Source of the DNA: Patescibacteria group bacterium
GTDB lineage: Bacteria; Patescibacteriota; Microgenomatia; Levybacterales; UBA12049
NCBI GenBank assembly: GCA_038062115.1
Contig: JBBTXS010000009.1
Location: 91,681-155,680, forward strand
Reading direction: 5' to 3'
Length of the DNA: 64,000 nucleotides
This document shows positions 2,452-56,332 of the stretch, one piece after another (positions within the stretch are counted from its first letter, which is position 1; each line of letters opens with the position of its first letter). The position numbers and the translations under genes were made by a program. Under the pieces are notes generated by a model. That model saw only the letters and a list, made by a program, of their open reading frames with translations, searched no databases and was not told where the DNA came from.

Positions 2452-2736
2452 TTAGTTGGCTGATACGATTAAAGGGACACTGAGGATAAATCCCTTTTTT
2501 GCCCTTTGTGTAGTTCTTTTGAGCTTCAGAGGAATAACTATACCCTCTTCTTTATATAATTCAATAAGGGAAGATGCAACATAAGAAATCTCATTAATTG
2601 TTTCTTCGATTGTGTCTCCTTGCGCATAGCAATCTTTCCATGAAGAGCATACAGCAGTAAACCCACCTGCTTTTTCTTCCTGCATAGAAATAGGAAGTTC
2701 GTATTCCTGAATATGTAATGTTTTGTTCTTTTTCAT
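2452..2736 (-). CDS. hicB: HicB-family antitoxin (UPF0150-like N-domain)
   Basis: 94 aa: GGFTAVCSSWKDCYAQGDTIEETINEI...LIELYKEEG. This is the typical HicB RNase-H-like fold signature, and the gene is paired with hicA. Confidence 0.7.
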   Translation of the reverse strand: MKKNKTLHIQEYELPISMQEEKAGGFTAVCSSWKDCYAQGDTIEETINEISYVASSLIELYKEEGIVIPLKLKRTTQRAKKGFILSVPLIVSAN

Positions 2737-2747
2737 AATGAAAATAT

Positions 2748-2856
2748 GGCTGGGTCATAAATACCCATTTGTCATTCCGAGCGAGCGTGAGCGAGTCGAG
2801 GAATCTCGTTGAAGGAGATTTCTCGGCAAGCTCGAAATGACAATTGTGACCCAGTC
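2748..2856. mobile_element. Palindromic MITE-like element (GTCATTCCGAGCG...CTCGAAATGAC core) flanked by a 13-15-bp direct repeat
   Basis: Inverted ends are GGCTGGGTCATAA / TTGTGACCCAGTC. The flanking direct repeat (TC)ATAATGAAAATAT occurs at 2733-2747 and 2855-2869, and the left copy includes the hicB start codon (rc). Confidence 0.7.
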
Positions 2857-2907
2857 ATAATGAAAATATAATAGCAGATTCATTCTTATTCTTCAATGGT
2901 AAATTTC

Positions 2908-3030
2908 GTAACTGTCCACGATTTGACAAAACATCTGCCATCTCGAGCCTAAGCGAGAGATCCCATGGGGATTTCTCACCTACTGCGTAGCTTCGAAATG
3001 ACAATCCTTTGGAAACTCGTGGACGGTTAC
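2908..3030. mobile_element. 123-bp MITE, GTAAC...GTTAC family, diverged copy, with 8-bp TSD
   Basis: TIRs are GTAACTGTCCACGATTTG / AAACTCGTGGACGGTTAC. Palindromic core is CATCTCGAGCCTAAGCGAGAGATCCC...CTTCGAAATGACA. Perfect 8-bp direct repeat TAAATTTC at 2900-2907 and 3031-3038. Confidence 0.85.
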
Positions 3031-3112
3031 TAAATTTCATGATAGACTTTATATTGTAGCTTCAGTTTTTTGATACTCCAGTTGGATAATAGAACCTGAT
3101 ATAATTTCTTTA

Positions 3113-3751
3113 ATGAAAGTAAATAAATTAACTATTCAAAAGAACTGGAAGGAAATAACAAGGAGTAGTTATGACAAACACGCTGAAGAATTTGCAGCAT
3201 TTACAACTATATTTAGAGGTAGATTGCAAAAATGGATTGACTATTTCCCCGCCCAACTTCCTAAGGGTTCATTAATTCTTGATGTTGGATGTGGTGCAGG
3301 AAGGGACGCTTTGTACCTTACTAATAAAGGTCTTTCCATAACTGGTATTGATTTTTCGGAGAAACTTATTGAAATAGCCAAAAAGAAAGTTAGACGTGGA
3401 AAATTTATTGTTATGGATTTTGAAAAGTTATCATTTCCTAAAAATAGTTTTGATGGAATCTGGGCATCCGCAAGTCTTTACCATGTTCCAAGAGAAAATT
3501 TATTAGGGGTTCTTAAAAAACTAAATTTAGTTTTAAAACATGATGGGTTATTTTTCTCCCTATATAGAGTTGGAGAAGGAGAAAAGTTTACAAAAGAGAA
3601 AAGAGGAAATGCTATCCTTGAAAGATTCTGTGCTTATTACAAACCACAAGAGATAGGGAATTTGTTAACTAAAACAGGATTTAACAGTATAATATCAGAG
3701 TTAGATGTCATAGAAACTGGTGACTGGCTAGGAGTTTTTGCAAGAAAATAA
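3113..3751 (+). CDS. Class I SAM-dependent methyltransferase
   Basis: Motif I LDVGCGAGRD, then the post-I/II pattern DGIWASASLYHV. 212 aa. Confidence 0.85.
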   Translation: MKVNKLTIQKNWKEITRSSYDKHAEEFAAFTTIFRGRLQKWIDYFPAQLPKGSLILDVGCGAGRDALYLTNKGLSITGIDFSEKLIEIAKKKVRRGKFIVMDFEKLSFPKNSFDGIWASASLYHVPRENLLGVLKKLNLVLKHDGLFFSLYRVGEGEKFTKEKRGNAILERFCAYYKPQEIGNLLTKTGFNSIISELDVIETGDWLGVFARK

Positions 3752-3762
3752 AAATAGGATGG

Positions 3763-5199
3763 TTAAAGTCTTAGAAATAATGGTTTTTGGGAAGTAATTT
3801 TTGGTTTTTTGAATTGGTCTTCGATTTTTTGGGCAGTTGTTGGAAGAAATGGTTCAAGGAGTATTGCAATTTCTTGGATTTGGTCTATTGCATGATCTAG
3901 GATAGTCTTTAGTCTTTGGCTTTTGGTCTTTACTAATTCCCAAGGTTTTTCGTTATTGATAAAACGATCAAGAAGAGTAATTTTTTTCCAAATAAAAGAC
4001 AGGGCATCGTTAAATCTAAATTCAAACAAAGCCTCTGAATATTCTTCGATGGCAATAATATGTACATATGTTTTGCTTACTGATTGCATTTGCTTATAAT
4101 TGGCAGTTTCTGCAAGTTTTGCAACTCTAGATACTGTGTTCCCCAAACCATTTGCCAAATCAGAATTATATGCTTGAATTAGTTTTTCCTCTGATATATC
4201 ACTATCATCTGTAAGATTAGTGTATCTTAAAAGATAATAACGGACAGCGTCTGCACCATATTTTCTTACCCAATCTGTGGGTCTTATTATATTTCCCAAA
4301 GATTTGCTAATTTTTTGGCCATTGAGAGTTAGGAATCCATTGACAAGAATTGTTTCTGGCAGATCTATCCCAGCACATTTAAGCATGGCAGGCCATAAAA
4401 GCGAATGCCACCTAAGATTGTCTTTTCCTAAAACATGAATCTCTGCAGGCCAGAATTTTTTAAACAGTTTTTCGTTTTCAAGAAAACCAATGCCTGTAAG
4501 GTAATTTGTTAATGCGTCAAACCATACATACATAACTTGTTTTGGTTCATTTGGAATTGGAACGCCCCATGTAAAATTTGATCTTGAGATAGGAATATCT
4601 TTTATGTTTTTGGCAAACTTAAGCATTTCGTTAACCCTTTCTTTTGGAAAAATAAAATCCTGATTTTTTTTAAGATGATTAATCAAAAAATCTTTATATT
4701 TAGACCATTTGAAGAAATAGTTTTCTTCGGTTATTTTTTTAATTTCAAGACTTGGGTGAAAAGGACACTTTCCATCTATCAAATCTGATTGTTCGTAGTA
4801 AGCTTCGCATCCTTCACAATATAATCCTTCGTATTTACCAAGATATATATCCCCGTTATTGTTTACTCGTTTCCATATTTCTTGAGCTACTTTAGTATGA
4901 TCTTCGTCCGTTGTTCTTATGAATCTATCGTATGAGATGTTTAGAGCGTCTTGTTGTTTTTGGTCAGAGTCGGAAATTTTTTTAACAAATTCCGATGGAG
5001 AAATACTAGCTTGTCTTGCAGCTTTTTCTGCCTTTTGGCCATATTCATCGGTACCAGTCAGGAAAAAAACATTTTCCTTTCCAAGTACTATGCGATAATA
5101 TCGAGCCAGAACATCAGCCGCAATCTTTTGGAAAGCATGCCCAATGTGAATTGTGTCATTAACATAATCAATTGCTGTTGTTATATAGAATTTGTTCAC
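3763..5199 (-). CDS. metG: Methionyl-tRNA synthetase (short form, no C-terminal tRNA-binding domain)
   Basis: HIGH-type motif TIHIGHAF, KMSKS-type motif KISKSLGN, and a Cys knuckle CEGCEAYY...CPFH. Confidence 0.95.
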   Translation of the reverse strand: MNKFYITTAIDYVNDTIHIGHAFQKIAADVLARYYRIVLGKENVFFLTGTDEYGQKAEKAARQASISPSEFVKKISDSDQKQQDALNISYDRFIRTTDEDHTKVAQEIWKRVNNNGDIYLGKYEGLYCEGCEAYYEQSDLIDGKCPFHPSLEIKKITEENYFFKWSKYKDFLINHLKKNQDFIFPKERVNEMLKFAKNIKDIPISRSNFTWGVPIPNEPKQVMYVWFDALTNYLTGIGFLENEKLFKKFWPAEIHVLGKDNLRWHSLLWPAMLKCAGIDLPETILVNGFLTLNGQKISKSLGNIIRPTDWVRKYGADAVRYYLLRYTNLTDDSDISEEKLIQAYNSDLANGLGNTVSRVAKLAETANYKQMQSVSKTYVHIIAIEEYSEALFEFRFNDALSFIWKKITLLDRFINNEKPWELVKTKSQRLKTILDHAIDQIQEIAILLEPFLPTTAQKIEDQFKKPKITSQKPLFLRL

Positions 5200-5245
5200 A
5201 AAACAATTCTAGCAGAGGATACGTATTCAAGCAACATAGTTAATT

Positions 5246-5368
5246 GTAACTATTCAGTTCTTACCAATGAAGCTGTCATTTCGAGCGTAGCGAGAAATCC
5301 CCAGGGGATTCTCACGGCTACTTCGTAGCCTCAGAATGACATTCTGTTGGGAACAACTGAATACTTAC
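5246..5368. mobile_element. 123-bp MITE, GTAAC...CTTAC family, copy A, with 8-bp TSD
   Basis: Base-for-base identical to 11915-12037. TIRs are GTAACTATTCAGTTCTTACCAA / TTGGGAACAACTGAATACTTAC. TSD AGTTAATT at 5238-5245 and 5369-5376. Confidence 0.9.
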
Positions 5369-5428
5369 AGTTAATTAGCCTAAAGTAGGCTACTACGTAG
5401 TAACACACTTTAGAAACACGATAAACGC

Positions 5429-5764
5429 CTATTTTTTCTTGGTAAATAGAAGTTCGAGGGTGAAGAAAAGAGCTAATAAAAGAATAAGGAAAAATACGTG
5501 CATTAGGTGAAAAAAGCGAAGAAGTAAATAGGTTGTTATCAATAAGGCAAAGAATAGTCCTCTTCGGTAATGGTTTAAGACATAGGAAACAAAAGAAAAA
5601 ATAAATAAAAAAATAAGGGGAAAGAAAACAACAGTAATCGGTAACCTGTAAGTAGTAATTAGTAATTGGTGGTTGGGAGGAAAAGAAAAAATAATATAAG
5701 TAAGCGTTGCTAAAGACAAAATACTAAATACCAAAAGCCAAAAGGATCGTCTTTTTCGCCGCAT
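5429..5764 (-). CDS. Small integral membrane protein, unknown function
   Basis: 111 aa with about 4 hydrophobic helices. No recognisable family. Confidence 0.5.
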   Translation of the reverse strand: MRRKRRSFWLLVFSILSLATLTYIIFSFPPNHQLLITTYRLPITVVFFPLIFLFIFSFVSYVLNHYRRGLFFALLITTYLLLRFFHLMHVFFLILLLALFFTLELLFTKKK

Positions 5765-10877: not shown

Positions 10878-11738
10878 ATGAATAAAGATTATTATCAAAT
10901 TTTAGGGGTCCCAAAAACAGCCCCTCTTGATGAGATAAAAAGAGCGTATAGGAAACTTGCACTTTTGTATCATCCAGATCGCAACAAGGGTAAAGAGGCA
11001 GAAGTTAAGTTTAAAGAAATAAACAAAGCCTACGAAGTATTGTCTGACCAACAAAAAAGGCAGGCATATGATCAGTTTGGCGCCTCTGCTTTTGAACAAG
11101 GATCCGGTTCTGGGCAGCAAACTGGTCGCTATGGGCCTTTTACATATACTTATACAACATCTGGAGATGCCCCAGATGTTGATTTTGGTGGGTTTTCTGA
11201 TCCTTTTGAAATATTTGAACAGTTTTTTGGCGGAGCATCTCCTTTTGGCAGACGCCAACGCCGTACTACTTATTCTTTAAATATTAGTTTTATGGAGGCA
11301 GTCCACGGAGCCCAGAAACGAGTTACGCTTGATGGAAAGACGCAAACAATAAAAATACCAGCGGGCGTAGATGATGGTTCACGAATTCGTTTTGGAGAAT
11401 ATGATGTTATTGTCGAGGTAACTCCTGACCCAAGATTTAATAGAGAAGGATACGATATTATTACAGAAAAAGAGATATCATTTCCCCAGGCAGCATTAGG
11501 CGATGAAGTTAATGTTGCAGTAGTAGATGGTGATATAAAAATTAGAATTCCTTCGGGAACACAGTCAAATGCTGTTATAAGACTTCGTGGTAAAGGAGTT
11601 CCTCATGTGCAAAGTACAGGCCGGGGAGATCATTATGTAAGAATAAAAGTAATAGTTCCCAAACATTTAACTCGTAGTCAAAAAGAAATTCTGAGGGGAT
11701 TTGAGGAAGAAGGAAAACACAAGAGAGGCTGGTTCTAA
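10878..11738 (+). CDS. J-domain co-chaperone, DnaJ/CbpA-like without zinc-finger domain
   Basis: DYYQILGV...HPDRN J-domain, a G/F-rich linker, and C-terminal substrate-binding domains. There are no CxxCxGxG repeats. 286 aa. Confidence 0.85.
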
Positions 11739-11778
11739 TAAAAATTTGCACGTCATTTCTAGATGGTGAAATGTTAGT

Positions 11779-11906
11779 GTAGCTAACAGTTTACTCTTCT
11801 GACATGAATTTTATTCTTCGAGCGTAAGCGAGAAGTTTACAGCCCTGTTATTTCTCGGCTTTCAGCCTCGAACAATAAAAAGTTTTGACAACTGCTGAAC
11901 GGCTAC
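11779..11906. mobile_element. Degenerate palindromic MITE-like element adjacent to copy B
   Basis: Ends are GTAGCTAACAG... / ...CTGAACGGCTAC. Core is ATTCTTCGAGCGTAAGCGAGAAG...TTCTCGGCTTTCAGCCTCGAACAAT. I could not identify a clean TSD. Confidence 0.5.
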
Positions 11907-11914
11907 AAGACAAT

Positions 11915-12037
11915 GTAACTATTCAGTTCTTACCAATGAAGCTGTCATTTCGAGCGTAGCGAGAAATCCCCAGGGGATTCTCACGGCTACTTCGTAGCCT
12001 CAGAATGACATTCTGTTGGGAACAACTGAATACTTAC
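11915..12037. mobile_element. 123-bp MITE, GTAAC...CTTAC family, copy B, with 8-bp TSD
   Basis: Identical to 5246-5368. TSD AAGACAAT at 11907-11914 and 12038-12045. Confidence 0.9.
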
Positions 12038-12090
12038 AAGACAATAGGTTGCATGTAAAGCCAGCCTGATGTAGAATTGTTATTCATCCT

Positions 12091-12930
12091 ATGGGAAGTG
12101 TAGACCAAGAACCCATAAGTTTAACTATTAAAGAAAGATTTCCCCGCTTAGAAGAAATCCCTGAAGGCATATACCCCAACGGTGGATACCCCAACCATGT
12201 ATTAATTATCCCAGACCGAAATAGAACCTTTGCAAAGAAATTTGCACAAGCGTCAATCTTTGGTCATAGAAAAGGAGCAGAAGCTCTAGAGCAAGGATTG
12301 CTTGATTTATGGGAGCTGGAAATTCCTAACATTAGCATTTGGGGAGCATCCGAAAAAAACATAGACGAAAGAGATAAACACGAAATGAAGGAGCTATTTC
12401 AGCTAGAAGAATCTATGGTAACCAGAAATTTACTTAATCTCCAAAAATATGGAATTCGATTTATTCGTGTAGGCAGAAAAGATAGGCTACCAGCAAGCCT
12501 TCTGACAACTATTCAAAGCGCAGAAAAACTGACTGAAAATAATTCAGAAAAAACACTTCGCTTATTACTTGATTATGGAGAAACCTATAGGCAAAGAGAG
12601 TATGATAAAAAATTAGCCCAAGCCATTATCGACTTAGCTTTACCCCCAAGAACTATTGCTACCGATGACTTAATCAAAAGCCTTAATATCCCTGATATTA
12701 TGCCTCCTGTAGATTGTGCAATAAGAACAGTTGGTCCAAAGGAAGACGAAGATATTGATTTCTTTTGGACATCCGAGATTGGCAGAATTACTGACAAGGC
12801 TTACTGGTTCCTCATTTATAAATATTTTCCAGAAGCTACTACAGAAGACTTTGTTAATGCTATAATAAGTTATTATAAAATAGATAAGAGAAAAGGTGGC
12901 GACTCAAAAAGATCCACTAAAAATGTTTAA
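12091..12930 (+). CDS. uppS: cis-Prenyltransferase (UppS family), divergent
   Basis: HVLIIPDRNRTFAKK compared with the canonical HVAIIMDGNRRWAK. IFGHRKGAEAL and ISIWGASEKNIDER compared with the canonical LTLYAFSTENWKR. Confidence 0.65.
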   Translation: MGSVDQEPISLTIKERFPRLEEIPEGIYPNGGYPNHVLIIPDRNRTFAKKFAQASIFGHRKGAEALEQGLLDLWELEIPNISIWGASEKNIDERDKHEMKELFQLEESMVTRNLLNLQKYGIRFIRVGRKDRLPASLLTTIQSAEKLTENNSEKTLRLLLDYGETYRQREYDKKLAQAIIDLALPPRTIATDDLIKSLNIPDIMPPVDCAIRTVGPKEDEDIDFFWTSEIGRITDKAYWFLIYKYFPEATTEDFVNAIISYYKIDKRKGGDSKRSTKNV

Positions 12931-28084: not shown

Positions 28085-28123
28085 ATCCTTAATTCTGAAT
28101 TCTAAATTCTGAATTCTGAATTT

Positions 28124-35921: not shown

Positions 35922-36716
35922 CTAATAGTTCACTTTGTAGTATCGTCTCCATGGATGATTAAGAGACGGTTTCCAATTCAGTTTATGCGTTGTAAGAATT
36001 AATGGTTGTCTATTCATCTTCTTAGGCCTTTCTGGCAAAACTGTGTAATTGAGATATTTTTCTCTTAACGAGAAATGTATCGTTTCATCAAGCCATTCTT
36101 CAACAAGAACTTTGTCTTTTGCCCTAACAGTTGTCGGCTGAAGTTCCGTTAACTGATACCACTTGTTTTTAAACTGATACGAGTTTCGCAGTTCTAGTAG
36201 AATACCTATATGTCATTCCCGCGAAAGCGGGAATCTATACCAATAATTTATTTATATGGATTCCGTGTCAAGCACGGAATGACAAATGTGCGAAACTCGT
36301 GACTGAATAGTAAAGTCATTGTTTACTCGGCGTTTTGATTGCGCAGAAAAGATGCGGTGTATATTTTTTCTGTCAGTGTCTGAGAGTAATCTATGAATAT
36401 CGCCTTCTTTTGCGGGAATAACTGCAAATCTATTATTGAACTTTGGCAGAAAAACTTTTTCTAAAAACCTATTTCCCTCCTCAGGAGTATTTATGTTGGC
36501 AAGTCGCATTTCTTTCATCAGTCTATCCCGCAGGGTTTCAAACAATCGTTCTACTCTTCCTTTTGCTTCAGGGGAATGGGCAGTGATTAAAAGTATATCC
36601 AAATCTTTTGTTCCTCGTTTAAACTGCGTCATTAATTCATGATTATCTACGGCTGCTTTATAGTTAATCTTGTAAGTGGAATGGTATTTTATATTGGACG
36701 CATATAAAGAAGGCAA
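35922..36716 (-). pseudogene. Remnant of an rve/DDE-type transposase (C-terminal ~40%), interrupted by a MITE
   Basis: HSPEAKGRVERLFETLRDRLMKEMRL...FLPKFNNRFAV...DFTIQ | MITE | (Y)QFKNKWYQLTELQPTTVRAKDKVLVEEWLDETIHF...*. The N-terminal HTH and the first part of the catalytic core are absent. Confidence 0.75.
36179..36300. mobile_element. 122-bp MITE inserted in the transposase remnant
   Basis: 12-bp perfect TIR ACGAGTTTCGCA / TGCGAAACTCGT. Core is TGTCATTCCCGCGAAAGCGGGAAT...ATTCCGTGTCAAGCACGGAATGACA. Removing it rejoins the transposase reading frame. Confidence 0.85.
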
Positions 36717-51330: not shown

Positions 51331-51417
51331 TGTCATTGCGAGCGCAAGGCGAAGCAATCTCCACTCTTATTGAGATCGCCACGGGACGCACCGTCTGGTG
51401 CATCCCTCGCGATGACA
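51331..51417. repeat. Palindromic GTCATTGCGAGCG-type element upstream of pcrA
   Basis: TGTCATTGCGAGCGCAAGGCGAAGCAATC...GCATCCCTCGCGATGACA. It produces the false N-terminal extension in the ORF track. Confidence 0.8.
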
Positions 51418-51437: not shown

Positions 51438-53360
51438 ATGCAAAAAGAATTTCTCAAGGACTTAAATCTGGAGCAAAAAAAAGCGGTCCTACATAACCTG
51501 GGCCCAATGATAATTTTAGCAGGTGCTGGGTCTGGAAAAACAAGAGTGTTAACCTATAAAGTTATATATCTAATAAAACAAAAAGGTATAGATCCCCTAA
51601 ATATCCTTATGGTAACATTTACAAACAAGGCAGCGAACGAGATGAAAGAACGTGTGCAAAGATTTCTAGCTACCGACCAATCACCAATCACCAATCACCA
51701 ATCACCCACTATCTCCACTTTCCATTCTATTTGCGCCAAAATACTAAGGATTGATGGAAAATATATTGGTATTTCTTCTAGATTTGTTATTTATGATACG
51801 CAAGACCAGACAGATGCAACAAAAGAAGCTATGAAAAAACTTAGTATATCTGTTAAAGACTATAAACCAGTATCTATTTTAGCAACTATTTCTCAGGCAA
51901 AAAACGAGCTTATTTCAGACGCAGAGTATTCTAAATATGCAAGAGGACATTTTCAAGAGACTGTAGCAAAAGTTTATCCAGTTTATCAAGAAATTCTCAA
52001 AGCAAATTATGCACTTGATTTTGACGATTTATTGCTAAAAACAGTTTATCTTTTTGAACAAAATCCTCAGCTTCTTGAAAAGTATCAAAATCGCTTTCGT
52101 TATATTTTGATAGACGAATATCAAGATACAAACCATGCGCAGTATACACTTGCAAAAATGCTTTCAGATAAATTTAAAAATATTTGTGTCGTTGGAGACT
52201 TTTCTCAAAGTATTTATAGTTGGAGAGGAGCAGATTTTAGAAATCTAACAAAATTTAAAACTGATTTTAAAAATGTAGTAACTTTTGCGCTTTCTCAAAA
52301 TTATCGCTCAACCCAAAAAATTTTAGATGCAGCATCTTCTGTTATATCTAGAAATACTACCCATCCAGTGCTTAAACTTTGGACAGAAAATCCAAATGGA
52401 GAAGATGTTACCATTTATGAGGCAGGAAACGAGCATGAAGAAGTAGAATTTATCGTTAGTCAATTATCCAATTTGAAATATGAAATTACAAATTTAAAGT
52501 ATACAGATTTTGCCATTCTTTACAGAACCAATGCTCAATCTAGAATCATTGAAGAAGTTTTTATACATAGAGGTACCCCATATATTTTAATTGGAGGAAC
52601 AAGGTTTTACGAAAGAAAAGAAATAAAAGATGTATTAGCATATCTTAGAGTCTTAGCAAATTCAAAAGACATGGTTTCTTACAAACGGATTGAGAAATTA
52701 GGTAAAGGAAGGCTTGAAAAGTTTCTAGATTTTCAGAATAAAGTCATTCTGGGGATCCGCCAGCTGGCGGAGACTCCAGAATCTCCTGATACGAAAAGAC
52801 ATTCTGGACAAGCCAGAATGACGACTATTGATATTTTGGATCAAGTTCTTAAAAAAACAGAATATCTATCTTTATATAATGAGAAAAATGAAGAAGATAG
52901 AACAAGACTAGAAAATATTAAAGAACTGCGTTCTGTTGCTGTTTCGCTACCAAAACTTACGCAATTCTTAGAAAATGTTTCCCTTGTTGAACAAGAATAC
53001 CTGCCAGATAAACCTAATAATAACGGAAAAAAAGATGCAGTAACCTTAATGACCTTACATGCTGCTAAAGGACTCGAGTTTCCTATAGTTTTTATGATTG
53101 GCATGGAAGAAGGACTTTTTCCTCATAGCAGAAGCTTAATGGACAAGAACGAACTCGAAGAAGAAAGAAGACTCTGCTATGTAGGGATGACTAGAGCCAA
53201 AAGTCGACTTTTCCTAACATACACAAGACAACGACTTTTCTTTGGACAAAAAATGTCAAACACTGTCTCTAGATTTATTTTTGAGCTTCCAGAGAGCGTT
53301 CTTGCTAAAAATCTTAAGTCTATTAATAAACAGAAAAGCGAAATACCAGAATGGCTATGA
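51438..53360 (+). CDS. pcrA: ATP-dependent DNA helicase PcrA/UvrD family
   Basis: LNLEQKKAV...ILAGAGSGKTRVLT, ILIDEYQDTN, QNYRST and TLHAAKGLEFP motifs. Contains two in-frame repeat inserts. Confidence 0.93.
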   Translation: MQKEFLKDLNLEQKKAVLHNLGPMIILAGAGSGKTRVLTYKVIYLIKQKGIDPLNILMVTFTNKAANEMKERVQRFLATDQSPITNHQSPTISTFHSICAKILRIDGKYIGISSRFVIYDTQDQTDATKEAMKKLSISVKDYKPVSILATISQAKNELISDAEYSKYARGHFQETVAKVYPVYQEILKANYALDFDDLLLKTVYLFEQNPQLLEKYQNRFRYILIDEYQDTNHAQYTLAKMLSDKFKNICVVGDFSQSIYSWRGADFRNLTKFKTDFKNVVTFALSQNYRSTQKILDAASSVISRNTTHPVLKLWTENPNGEDVTIYEAGNEHEEVEFIVSQLSNLKYEITNLKYTDFAILYRTNAQSRIIEEVFIHRGTPYILIGGTRFYERKEIKDVLAYLRVLANSKDMVSYKRIEKLGKGRLEKFLDFQNKVILGIRQLAETPESPDTKRHSGQARMTTIDILDQVLKKTEYLSLYNEKNEEDRTRLENIKELRSVAVSLPKLTQFLENVSLVEQEYLPDKPNNNGKKDAVTLMTLHAAKGLEFPIVFMIGMEEGLFPHSRSLMDKNELEEERRLCYVGMTRAKSRLFLTYTRQRLFFGQKMSNTVSRFIFELPESVLAKNLKSINKQKSEIPEWL

Positions 53361-54451
53361 ATATAAATAGCGTTGCAACTCATCCCCTGCAATCTTTAAA
53401 CTGGGGAGAGTTTAGAAAAAAAACTGGGGTTAAAGTTGTTAGACAAAATGGATTACAAATAACAATTCACAAAATACCCCATTTTGCTTGGACAATTGGA
53501 TATTTTCCAAAAGGCACCATGCCAACAGAGGAAGTAATTCATGAGCTTGAAAAAATTGGTAAAAATGAAAGATGCATTTTTATTCAGATCGAACCGAATA
53601 TAGCTATTGCTCGTCATTCTGGGGAGGAGGAACGACGACTCCAGAATCTCTCTCGGATGCAACATGAGAACGTAAGAGATTCTGGACAAGCCAGAATGAC
53701 AGAATACGGACTTCGTCCCGCCGCTCATCCTCTCTTCACCAAATATACTTTTATTCTCGGGCTAACAAAATCAGAGGATGAACTACTGAAAAACATGCAT
53801 CCCAAAACTAGGTACAATATTAAAGTTGCTCAAAAACACGGCGTTAAGGTAATTGAAGATAACTCAGATGAAGCATTTGAAACATACTTAAGACTTACTA
53901 GGGAAACAACCAAAAGACAAGGCTTTTATGCACATACAGAAAATTACCATAGATTAATGTGGGAAACCCTCGGAATTCAGAATTCAGAATCTATAATTCA
54001 GAATTTCGATAGGAATAAATTGACAGCACATCTTTTTTTGGCAAAATATATACCTCCTTCGTCTAATTCTGAATTATTAATTATAAATTCTAAATTGCAA
54101 GCGCTAACGCTTGCCGCTTGGATTCTTTTTGTCTATAAAGATACACTTTATTATCCCTATGGAGCATCATCAAACCAGTATCGCGAAACTATGGCATCAA
54201 ATCTTATGATGTGGGAGGCAATAAAATTTGGAAAAAAATTAGGTCTTAAAAAATTCGATATGTGGGGAGCGCTGGGCCCAAATCCAGACACTAATGATCC
54301 GTGGTATGGTTTTCATAGATTTAAAGAAGGATATGGCGGAAAATTGGTTGAATTTGTTGGAAGTTACGATCTTGTTATAAATCCAATTTTATATCAACTA
54401 TATAAATTTGCAGATAAACTTCGCTGGTTGATCTTGAAACTTAAAAGCTAA
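53351..54451 (+). CDS. FemAB-family peptidoglycan interpeptide-bridge aminoacyltransferase
   Basis: NMHPKTRYNIKVAQKHGV...YPYGASSN.YRE.MASNLMMWEAIKFGKKLGLKKFDMWG. Contains three in-frame repeat-derived segments. Confidence 0.85.
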   Translation: MAMNINSVATHPLQSLNWGEFRKKTGVKVVRQNGLQITIHKIPHFAWTIGYFPKGTMPTEEVIHELEKIGKNERCIFIQIEPNIAIARHSGEEERRLQNLSRMQHENVRDSGQARMTEYGLRPAAHPLFTKYTFILGLTKSEDELLKNMHPKTRYNIKVAQKHGVKVIEDNSDEAFETYLRLTRETTKRQGFYAHTENYHRLMWETLGIQNSESIIQNFDRNKLTAHLFLAKYIPPSSNSELLIINSKLQALTLAAWILFVYKDTLYYPYGASSNQYRETMASNLMMWEAIKFGKKLGLKKFDMWGALGPNPDTNDPWYGFHRFKEGYGGKLVEFVGSYDLVINPILYQLYKFADKLRWLILKLKS

Positions 54452-55396: not shown

Positions 55397-55661
55397 GATA
55401 GCGTACCAATTCTCGGTTGCTTTTTTGTTAAAACCTGTTTGAAAAGTAGTTGTTTTTCCTTCTCTGTCATTGCGAACCAGTCCGCAGACTGGTGTAGCAA
55501 TCTCCAAATGCATGAGATTGCTTCGTCTCCGTCATCTGACGGATCCTCGCAATGACAAATACTTCACCTTCTATCTTCTGTTAACAGAGGATACTTAAAC
55601 GATTGTCTCAATATGTCAATCTGAATACAAGGATTTAGCAACCGGAAAACAATACGCTATC
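55397..55661. mobile_element. 265-bp MITE with 8-bp TSD
   Basis: TIRs GATAGCGTA..GGTTGC / GCAACC..TACGCTATC. Internal core TGTCATTGCGAACCAGTCCGCAGACTGGTGTAGCAATC...GATCCTCGCAATGACA. TSD ACATTTTG at 55389-55396 and 55662-55669. Confidence 0.85.
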
Positions 55662-55888: not shown

Positions 55889-56332
55889 ATGGGTTCGTCA
55901 AAGATAAGTTTCGCAGTAGTCACAGCAGTTTTCTTGGCAGTGGCGGGTGTTTTGGCGGTCTTTGAGGTGTTTGCTAACAGCGTGTCAGCCGCACCCAAGA
56001 TCACAGACCCGCTAGTTGTGAAAGCGTGCATGCGGGCTAACGGCAATATTCGGGTGACCATGACTTGGCATGACCTGGAAGGCGGAGTAGGAGCGGTGAC
56101 TGGGATTGCGAGCTATTATGCAGGTGCTCGAACTGCTTCACTAGCCTACACGCAGTTCCGCTACCAGACTAGTCCCTACCCTTTGTCTGGGCGGCAGGTC
56201 ATGGAATTTGCGCCGGCTCCGAACGTTCCGAGTCCAAATGACGGCCCCGTAAATCAGGTCTTTTACATCTTCGGCACTACACCTCCCTCAGTCGACTTCA
56301 GTGGCAGCATCACGGACTTCCGGAAATGCTAG
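55889..56332 (+). CDS. Secreted hypothetical protein (signal peptide, two Cys), GC-rich cargo gene
   Basis: MGSSKISFAVVTAVFLAVAGVLAVFEVFANSVSA|APK... SD-like AAGGGAG lies 8-9 nt upstream. Codon and GC usage are clearly unlike the neighbours. Confidence 0.65.
   Translation: MGSSKISFAVVTAVFLAVAGVLAVFEVFANSVSAAPKITDPLVVKACMRANGNIRVTMTWHDLEGGVGAVTGIASYYAGARTASLAYTQFRYQTSPYPLSGRQVMEFAPAPNVPSPNDGPVNQVFYIFGTTPPSVDFSGSITDFRKC

Follow-up and report, generated by a model that had tools for sequence, protein, structure and literature searches.

Classical bacterial MITEs, such as Correia/NEMIS in Neisseria, Nezha in cyanobacteria, RUP in Streptococcus and MITEPsy1/2 in Pseudomonas syringae, are non-coding elements of ~100-250 bp that share their TIRs with full-length IS. 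They are flanked by TSDs, can fold in their interior and occur in many copies between genes; the same is true of a 123-bp element in the 64-kb stretch of DNA analysed here (the window). RPEs, palindromic repeats that lie within Rickettsia genes, resemble its interior, as do REP/BIME. What sets the element apart from the classical MITEs (Correia/NEMIS, Nezha, RUP, MITEPsy1/2; PMC3189936) is that its parent family is IS66 and its host belongs to the CPR.

The hallmarks of IS66 are 20-30-bp IR starting GTAAGCG and 8-bp DRs (PMC11946415), and an ISBst12-type single-gene subgroup is listed in the family (PMC8024623; ISfinder/ISsaga). Like IS66 single-ORF elements, the window element has TIRs of 20-30 bp starting GTAA and 8-bp duplications (PMC11946415), and its partner elements, 1.5 kb long with one gene, encode a DDE_Tnp_IS66/NF033517 transposase. 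Unlike them it has no gene, and its TIR continues GTAACTATTCAG instead of the canonical GTAAGCG. Assignment to the ISBst12-type subgroup is by gene layout only and not by direct comparison to ISBst12.

We consider it very probable that the 123-bp repeats are non-autonomous IS66-family MITEs, mobilised in trans by a DDE transposase of the IS66 family, and that the two identical copies stem from a young burst. The element is of an ordinary kind in an unusual host. No description of an IS66-derived MITE was found in the literature, and searches for MITEs in CPR and for the core and TIR strings of the element returned nothing relevant.

Three 123-bp elements and their surroundings

The host is a Levybacteria-like member of the Patescibacteria (CPR) from Hainich aquifer groundwater, with a small (roughly 1-Mb-class) genome. 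Assemblies of the 0.1-µm fraction from the Hainich aquifer contain exact matches to proteins of the window, whose closest named homologues are from Candidatus Levybacteria / Microgenomates. CPR/Patescibacteria genomes are very small and usually called streamlined; a young multi-copy MITE burst would show selfish DNA still proliferating there.

The copies, termed A, B and C, have the following features (strand in parentheses).

5238-5245 (no strand): left TSD of copy A, AGTTAATT, the same as 5369-5376
5246-5368 (+): MITE copy A (123 bp), in the gap from the ORF 5429-5764(-) stop codon to the metG 3763-5199(-) start codon
5246-5267 (+): left TIR of copy A, GTAACTATTCAGTTCTTACCAA, with 2/22 differences from the TIRs of IS66-family IS at loci L019 and L064
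5275-5340 (+): internal palindromic core of copy A, GTCAT...ATGAC, 66 nt, multi-hairpin
5347-5368 (-): right TIR of copy A, reverse complement GTAAGTATTCAGTTGTTCCCAA
5369-5376 (no strand): right TSD of copy A, AGTTAATT
11907-11914 (no strand): left TSD of copy B, AAGACAAT, overlapping the -10-like GACAAT of a TTGACA-18-GACAAT promoter-like site
11915-12037 (+): MITE copy B, 123 bp, identical to A, between dnaJ (10878-11738) and uppS (12091-12930)
12038-12045 (no strand): right TSD of copy B, AAGACAAT, the same as 11907-11914
2900-2907 (no strand): left TSD of copy C, TAAATTTC, the same as 3031-3038
2908-3030 (+): MITE copy C, 123 bp, older diverged subfamily, TIR variant GTAACYGTCCACGA...
3031-3038 (no strand): right TSD of copy C, TAAATTTC

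The original prediction had called A and B identical from a base-by-base comparison; a script comparison agrees at 123/123 positions, with shared bases running just 1 further on each side, and a repeat search of the window recovered the same 123-bp family. The predicted 22-nt imperfect TIRs are borne out by a match at 19/22 positions between GTAACTATTCAGTTCTTACCAA and the reverse complement GTAAGTATTCAGTTGTTCCCAA. A search of the window for this TIR with up to 3 mismatches returned exactly the four ends of A and B, where shuffles gave an expectation of 0. Different 8-bp duplications at A and B had also been claimed, and each is perfect (8/8), as is that of C; at the composition of the window (35.7% GC), the chance of an 8/8 flank match is ~2.9e-5 per site. 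The third copy is, as described, of the same length, diverged and flanked by its own TSD. Aligned with copy A over 126 columns it has 90 identical positions, and its TIRs, GTAACTGTCCACGATTTGACAAA / GTAACCGTCCACGAGTTTCCAAA, are a distinct variant.

The element as a whole folds as a single long hairpin (DNA MFE -23.6 kcal/mol, z = -5.2 against dinucleotide shuffles). The claim of a palindromic core thus holds as to the hairpin, but the core is not private to the MITE, since GTCAT...ATGAC hairpins also occur without these TIRs (see below). The element is non-coding, and the ORFs that overlap it are spurious and cross its borders. Being small, non-coding, multi-copy and intergenic in every case, with TIRs and site-specific 8-bp TSDs, it merits the name MITE that it had been given.

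The copies have housekeeping genes as neighbours (metG, hrcA-grpE-dnaK-glmS-dnaJ, uppS and a ribosomal protein cluster). Copies A and B are both upstream insertions, 46 nt from the metG start and 53 nt from that of uppS, respectively; copy C occupies a divergent spacer between ORF 2452-2736(-) and a methyltransferase gene, 3113-3751(+). Inserts adjoin essential genes, namely metG and uppS here and gyrB at the Hainich locus L008. Next to copy C, a HicA toxin gene at 2227-2448 (PF07927, E = 1e-20) and its 94-aa partner ORF 2452-2736 directly adjoin the two small elements at 2751-3030.

Possible effects on neighbouring genes were considered. In a test for a MITE-borne -35 box or outward promoter, the sole site was ATGACA-18-AATACT, which scores 9/12. 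Its frequency equals that of chance, so effects on neighbour genes are speculative. Hybrid -35/-10 pairings at the sites of A, L006 and L008 are poor, and the spacing from ATGACA to the TIR differs between subfamilies. Promoter supply by the MITE is thus a weak possibility. At site B the -10-like GACAAT is part of the duplicated octamer, and the insertion would thus have split this hexamer from its -35 (TTGACA). Distances to the next start codon, with conservative ATG starts, range from 46 to 146 nt, and no rule of fixed spacing is claimed.

The identical copies might in principle be an assembly artefact, or else a terminator or functional RNA that was duplicated. In four other runs, short contigs (L042, L046-L048) stop 28-55 nt inside the element, a sign of confused assemblers, although such breaks are also expected of a dispersed repeat. 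Against an artefact, which had been named as a possible refutation, Hainich H41 contigs L041 and L043/L001 hold both A and B in the same unique flanks (L041 has copy C too); the full copies in L041 and L043 were assembled independently, and all same-strain assemblies are occupied. An RNA or terminator would agree with the great stability of the hairpin. The element has no Rfam match, however, in a whole-window scan at gathering thresholds that gave one tRNA only, and no terminator-like T-run or terminator-like site was found at it. Different TSDs at each site, and orthologous spacers of relatives that are free of the element, speak against artefact and RNA alike, and we give almost no credence to either. 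The repeat accounts for the contig breaks that recur in Hainich assemblies, and its insertions can serve as strain-level markers for uncultured populations.

The wider family and its IS66 partners

Public collections were scanned with GTAASTATTCAGTTSTTMCCAA and a one-N version (termini pattern GTAASTATTCAGTTNTTMCCAA). Four MAG contigs have the TIR pattern, three of them from Patescibacteria (a Hainich H51 Patescibacteria group isolate, Magasanikbacteria and Daviesbacteria) and the fourth from a bin with the label Gammaproteobacteria. It also occurs at 35 metagenome loci, in many cases at the end of a contig. Most hits proved to be complete elements (111-181 bp, with both TIRs), and 23 further complete ones in this size range were recognised through fuzzy TIR searches and alignment. 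The architecture is constant: a 22-nt TIR, a few bases, a GTCAT...ATGAC multi-hairpin core of variable length, and the second TIR. In an alignment of family elements, the TIRs are conserved across lineages far better than the cores.

A young A-type subfamily comprises at least seven loci, including A and B of the window. Copies at the Hainich H51 loci L006, L008, L011, L012 and L032 are 98-100% identical to A/B, with 100% at L008 and 121/123 at L011. The H51 cov-22 contigs with further A-type copies do not overlap the window and have similar GC content. Perfect 8-bp TSDs flank five of the seven young copies (AGTTAATT at A, AAGACAAT at B, and TTTATTTT, CTAATTAA and GAATTTGC among L006, L012 and L032); in the flanks of L008 and L011 a TSD is absent. 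Elsewhere in the family, an element at 1081-1202 of L004, from the Daviesbacteria MAG, has GCTTTTTT on both sides, a perfect 8-bp TSD, and the flanks of L028 match at 7/8 TSD positions. C-type elements have a second member, L012 2058-2180 (111/123 identical), which has no TSD and is hence taken to be older.

The prediction had proposed a search for a full-length IS with the same TIRs and 8-bp TSD, and 1.5-kb IS66-family elements were indeed found in other groundwater metagenomes. These partners are single-gene IS with the same termini (GTAASTATTCAGTTNTTMCCAA), and the gene is for an IS66-family DDE transposase. Two loci, L023 and L019, have TIR pairs >1 kb apart. L019 648-2155 (1508 bp) is filled by one ORF that matches PF03050 DDE_Tnp_IS66 (E = 6e-49) and NF033517, IS66 family transposase (241 bits against a cutoff of 180). 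The element at L064 778-2301 (1524 bp) is intact, with one 495-aa ORF ending inside the TIR, and its TIRs are GTAACTATTCAGTTCTCCCCAA and GTAACTATTCAGTTCTTCCCAG. The two are 98.8% identical, with a 16-nt gap in L019 that shifts the reading frame, and their TIRs differ from the left TIR of copy A at 2/22 positions. No TSD was found for the full-length copy in L019. Four other contigs end within the first 23-28 codons of this transposase gene, which is typical of a multi-copy IS.

L023 1616-3453 was rejected as a cargo-carrying version of the element with an AAA_14/DUF4143 ATPase. The ATPase gene is bracketed by two separate small MITEs of the family in inverted orientation; the arrangement has the look of a composite transposon but was judged a case of two independent insertions.

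At least 1977 related proteins came from a homologue search, most of them 470-495 aa long and on contigs of ~1.5 kb, and some named 'IS66 family transposase [Candidatus Woesebacteria]'. Fetched homologues (L049, L050/L051 and L053-55) have 54-62% identity and come from single-gene elements of 1503-1555 bp with a gene of 475-495 aa. The homologue elements (L049-L055) have related TIRs starting GTTAGTATTCAGTT..., GTAACTGATTAGTT... or GTAACTATTCAGTT..., and three (L049, L050 and L051) have perfect 8-bp TSDs, GCCCTTCC, ACATAAGG and ATAATATA. The partner elements lack the tnpA/tnpB of the canonical IS66 group, for which there is no room beside the single gene. Identity of partner transposases to plasmid-borne IS66 transposases is only 28-31%, placing them in a distant clade.

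Similarity between MITE and IS is limited to the 22-nt ends, and the interiors are unrelated. The MITE ends, GTAAC... and GTAAG..., are 22 nt long and start with GTAA, as IS66 TIRs do. On sequence grounds, the source of the ends is assigned to a single-gene clade of the IS66 family. This ties a widespread groundwater repeat family to a single-gene IS66 clade that branches deeply and has barely any characterised members.

A mechanism can be proposed from these parts. Two 22-nt IS66-type TIRs starting GTAA would serve as ends around a non-coding, self-complementary GTCAT...ATGAC core. An IS66-family DDE transposase, encoded by a 1.5-kb single-gene IS with the same ends, would act in trans, bind both TIRs and integrate the element at a target cut staggered by 8 bp, and repair of the stagger would give the 8-bp duplications. 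Copies A and B would come from a young burst, and C from an older subfamily with diverged TIRs. The anatomy, the duplications, the copy family, the absence in relatives and the full-length partners are observed; the mobilising role of this transposase, its present or recent source in the organism and the chemistry of the steps are inferred. That the window has no intact cognate transposase was predicted correctly: tblastn with eight IS66-clade transposases detected no IS66 transposase or remnant in the 64-kb window or in any fetched Hainich locus.

Unoccupied sites and the age of the copies

The closest relatives found keep the gene order metG-hrcA-grpE-dnaK-glmS-dnaJ; they are L056/L057 (DnaJ 89% identical) and L059 (79%). 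No TIR-like sequence was found in 16 kb of L057 and L059. Between dnaJ and uppS, L057 has a spacer of just 96 bp where the window has 352 bp, and the L057 alignment holds to about window position 11815, followed by extra window DNA that includes copy B. Copy A is absent from the metG upstream spacer in both relatives. These are unoccupied orthologous spacers and not base-exact empty sites, the divergence (DnaJ 79-89%) being too great for base-level footprints. The window's DnaJ is 286 aa long, against 298 aa in all close relatives, and the DNA alignment has a 1-nt indel near the dnaJ 3' end (window 11690-11760, L057 8640-8700), just upstream of the repeat-rich spacer. L008 was considered as another species' orthologue of the glmS-dnaJ region and rejected, since the genes it carries are a Y1_Tnp gene and an unrelated FemAB-fusion gene.

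The claim of recent activity is in part upheld. Copy identity, intact TSDs and absence in relatives together point to a recent burst; the step from these sequence features to activity is inferential, and on the other side stand the TSD-less copies at L008 and L011 and a transposase not found in the window or in fetched Hainich DNA. Could the MITEs be old and immobile, and their identity the work of gene conversion or homologous recombination? The copy at L008, 100% identical to A/B yet TSD-less, and the TSD-less L011 suggest recombination between copies, and the search turned up no transposase near any Hainich copy. But drift would erode TSDs, and those of five of the seven young copies are still perfect over 8 bp; both window sites are also unoccupied in syntenic relatives. 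The C subfamily shows what decay looks like, with 90% identity and the TSD lost in L012. Conversion tracts covering exactly 123 bp and stopping no more than 1 bp from the TIR tips are also unlikely. We therefore regard conversion of old copies as an improbable source of the identity, and prefer recent transposition. Given the two TSD-less young copies, and no transposase in the window or Hainich loci, recombination or gene conversion among some copies is likely.

GTCAT...ATGAC hairpins without IS66-type ends

Six window sites have GTCAT...ATGAC hairpins without IS66 ends (2771-2841, 36212-36283, 51332-51416, 52743-52822, 53613-53700 and 55466-55556). Their closing stems are 10-11 bp, with GTCAT/ATGAC kept and inner positions that covary. 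The core at 2771-2841 sits in a 105-bp element, 2751-2855, flanked by a 14-bp perfect direct repeat, CATAATGAAAATAT. This element has short inverted ends, CTGGGTCA..., around a core GTCATTCCGAGCG...CTCGAAATGAC and lies 52 bp from copy C; its end type and duplication length differ from those of the IS66 MITE. The naked or decayed cores in intergenic DNA include those at 36120-36380, 51332-51416, 55466-55556 and 11818-11875. Decayed TIR-like ACGAGTTTCGCA repeats flank the core at 36212-36283, as does TACTATTCAGT, which resembles A-/C-type ends, and the adjoining ORF 36252-36716(-) has a sub-threshold rve_3 match (E = 0.0095).

Such naked cores raise the question of whether the mobile unit is the hairpin itself, REP/RPE-like and moved by a Y1 (IS200/RAYT-like) enzyme or an unknown route, with the IS66-like ends incidental. 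Besides the six sites and their covarying stems, this account can draw on a Y1_Tnp gene 88 bp from the L008 MITE that recurs in L020. Yet the exactly repeated unit includes the TIRs and stops at them, the 8-bp TSDs lie outside the TIRs and not beside the core, and the TIRs are far more conserved than the cores across lineages. To our knowledge, Y1/HUH transposition (IS200/IS605, REP/RAYT) makes no TSD, which counts further against it. Since the repeated unit ends exactly at the TIRs, with TSDs outside, the Y1/RAYT route is disfavoured, and we hold it very improbable that the 123-bp elements moved in this way.

The 123-bp unit also differs from RPE and REP in having DDE-type TIRs and TSDs, which they lack; REP, RAYT and RPE call for a palindrome without TIR-flanking TSDs, and L008 and L020 are the only loci with a Y1_Tnp gene close by. 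Its interior hairpin resembles RPE and REP/BIME palindromes in form, with naked versions in frame in uvrD and femAB, but has no sequence similarity to RPE/REP, and a mobilising enzyme is at most a candidate. That candidate for the naked hairpins is Y1_Tnp. In L008 it is a 230-aa gene at 2016-2708 (IS200-like, RAYT-like; PF01797, E = 6e-11), 88 bp from the 100%-identical MITE; it recurs at 86% identity in another metagenome (L020 10988-11665), and none is in the window.

Two naked cores lie in frame within genes. The one at 52743-52822 is inside the uvrD/pcrA-like ORF 51438-53360, giving ...FQNK-VILGIRQLAETPESPDTKRHSGQARMT-TIDIL... (VILG...GQARMT), and that at 53613-53700 is inside the FemAB-family ORF 53351-54451 (RHSG...GQARMT). 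Of 32 close UvrD orthologues in an alignment, seven share the VIL...ARMT insert at this linker position, and the other 25 are without it. The closest UvrD relative (87% identical) is among the insert-less, and its DNA (L063) has neither the uvrD nor the femAB insert. In a Levybacteria MAG, GCA_016182235.1 (L065), the uvrD insert is a 77-nt GTCATTCTGG...CCAGAATGAC hairpin. PcrA structures align on both sides of the UvrD insert, and the region between is a variable linker.

The GTCAT...ATGAC hairpin may be an independent RPE-like module that circulates in Levybacteria-like CPR, in intergenic DNA, in MITE interiors with at least two kinds of end and, in frame, in the coding sequence of housekeeping genes; in that case two unrelated mobile systems would be combined in the IS66 MITE as a chimera. 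We offer this as a tentative reading, plausible but short of probable. A literature search for RPE-like elements in CPR found nothing. If hairpin modules do enter conserved proteins in frame, some of the variation in protein length in CPR would stem from them.

Other repeats were noted in the same part of the window. Short AATTCTGAATTC-type repeats are at 28090-28122, 53973-54012 and 54050-54097. Two AATTCTGAATTC-type blocks (24 and 48 nt) are in frame in the FemAB-family gene and absent from L063, so that this gene, with its hairpin and repeat blocks, holds three kinds of extra in-frame repeat DNA. Two direct repeat pairs, 55058-55095/55837-55874 (38 nt, 92%) and 55719-55779/56391-56451 (61 nt, 97%), are spaced 779 and 672 nt apart. 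They surround small ORFs, one of which (55889-56332, 147 aa) starts with a signal-peptide-like N-terminus and has no match in Pfam, and they look like duplicated promoter or leader regions.
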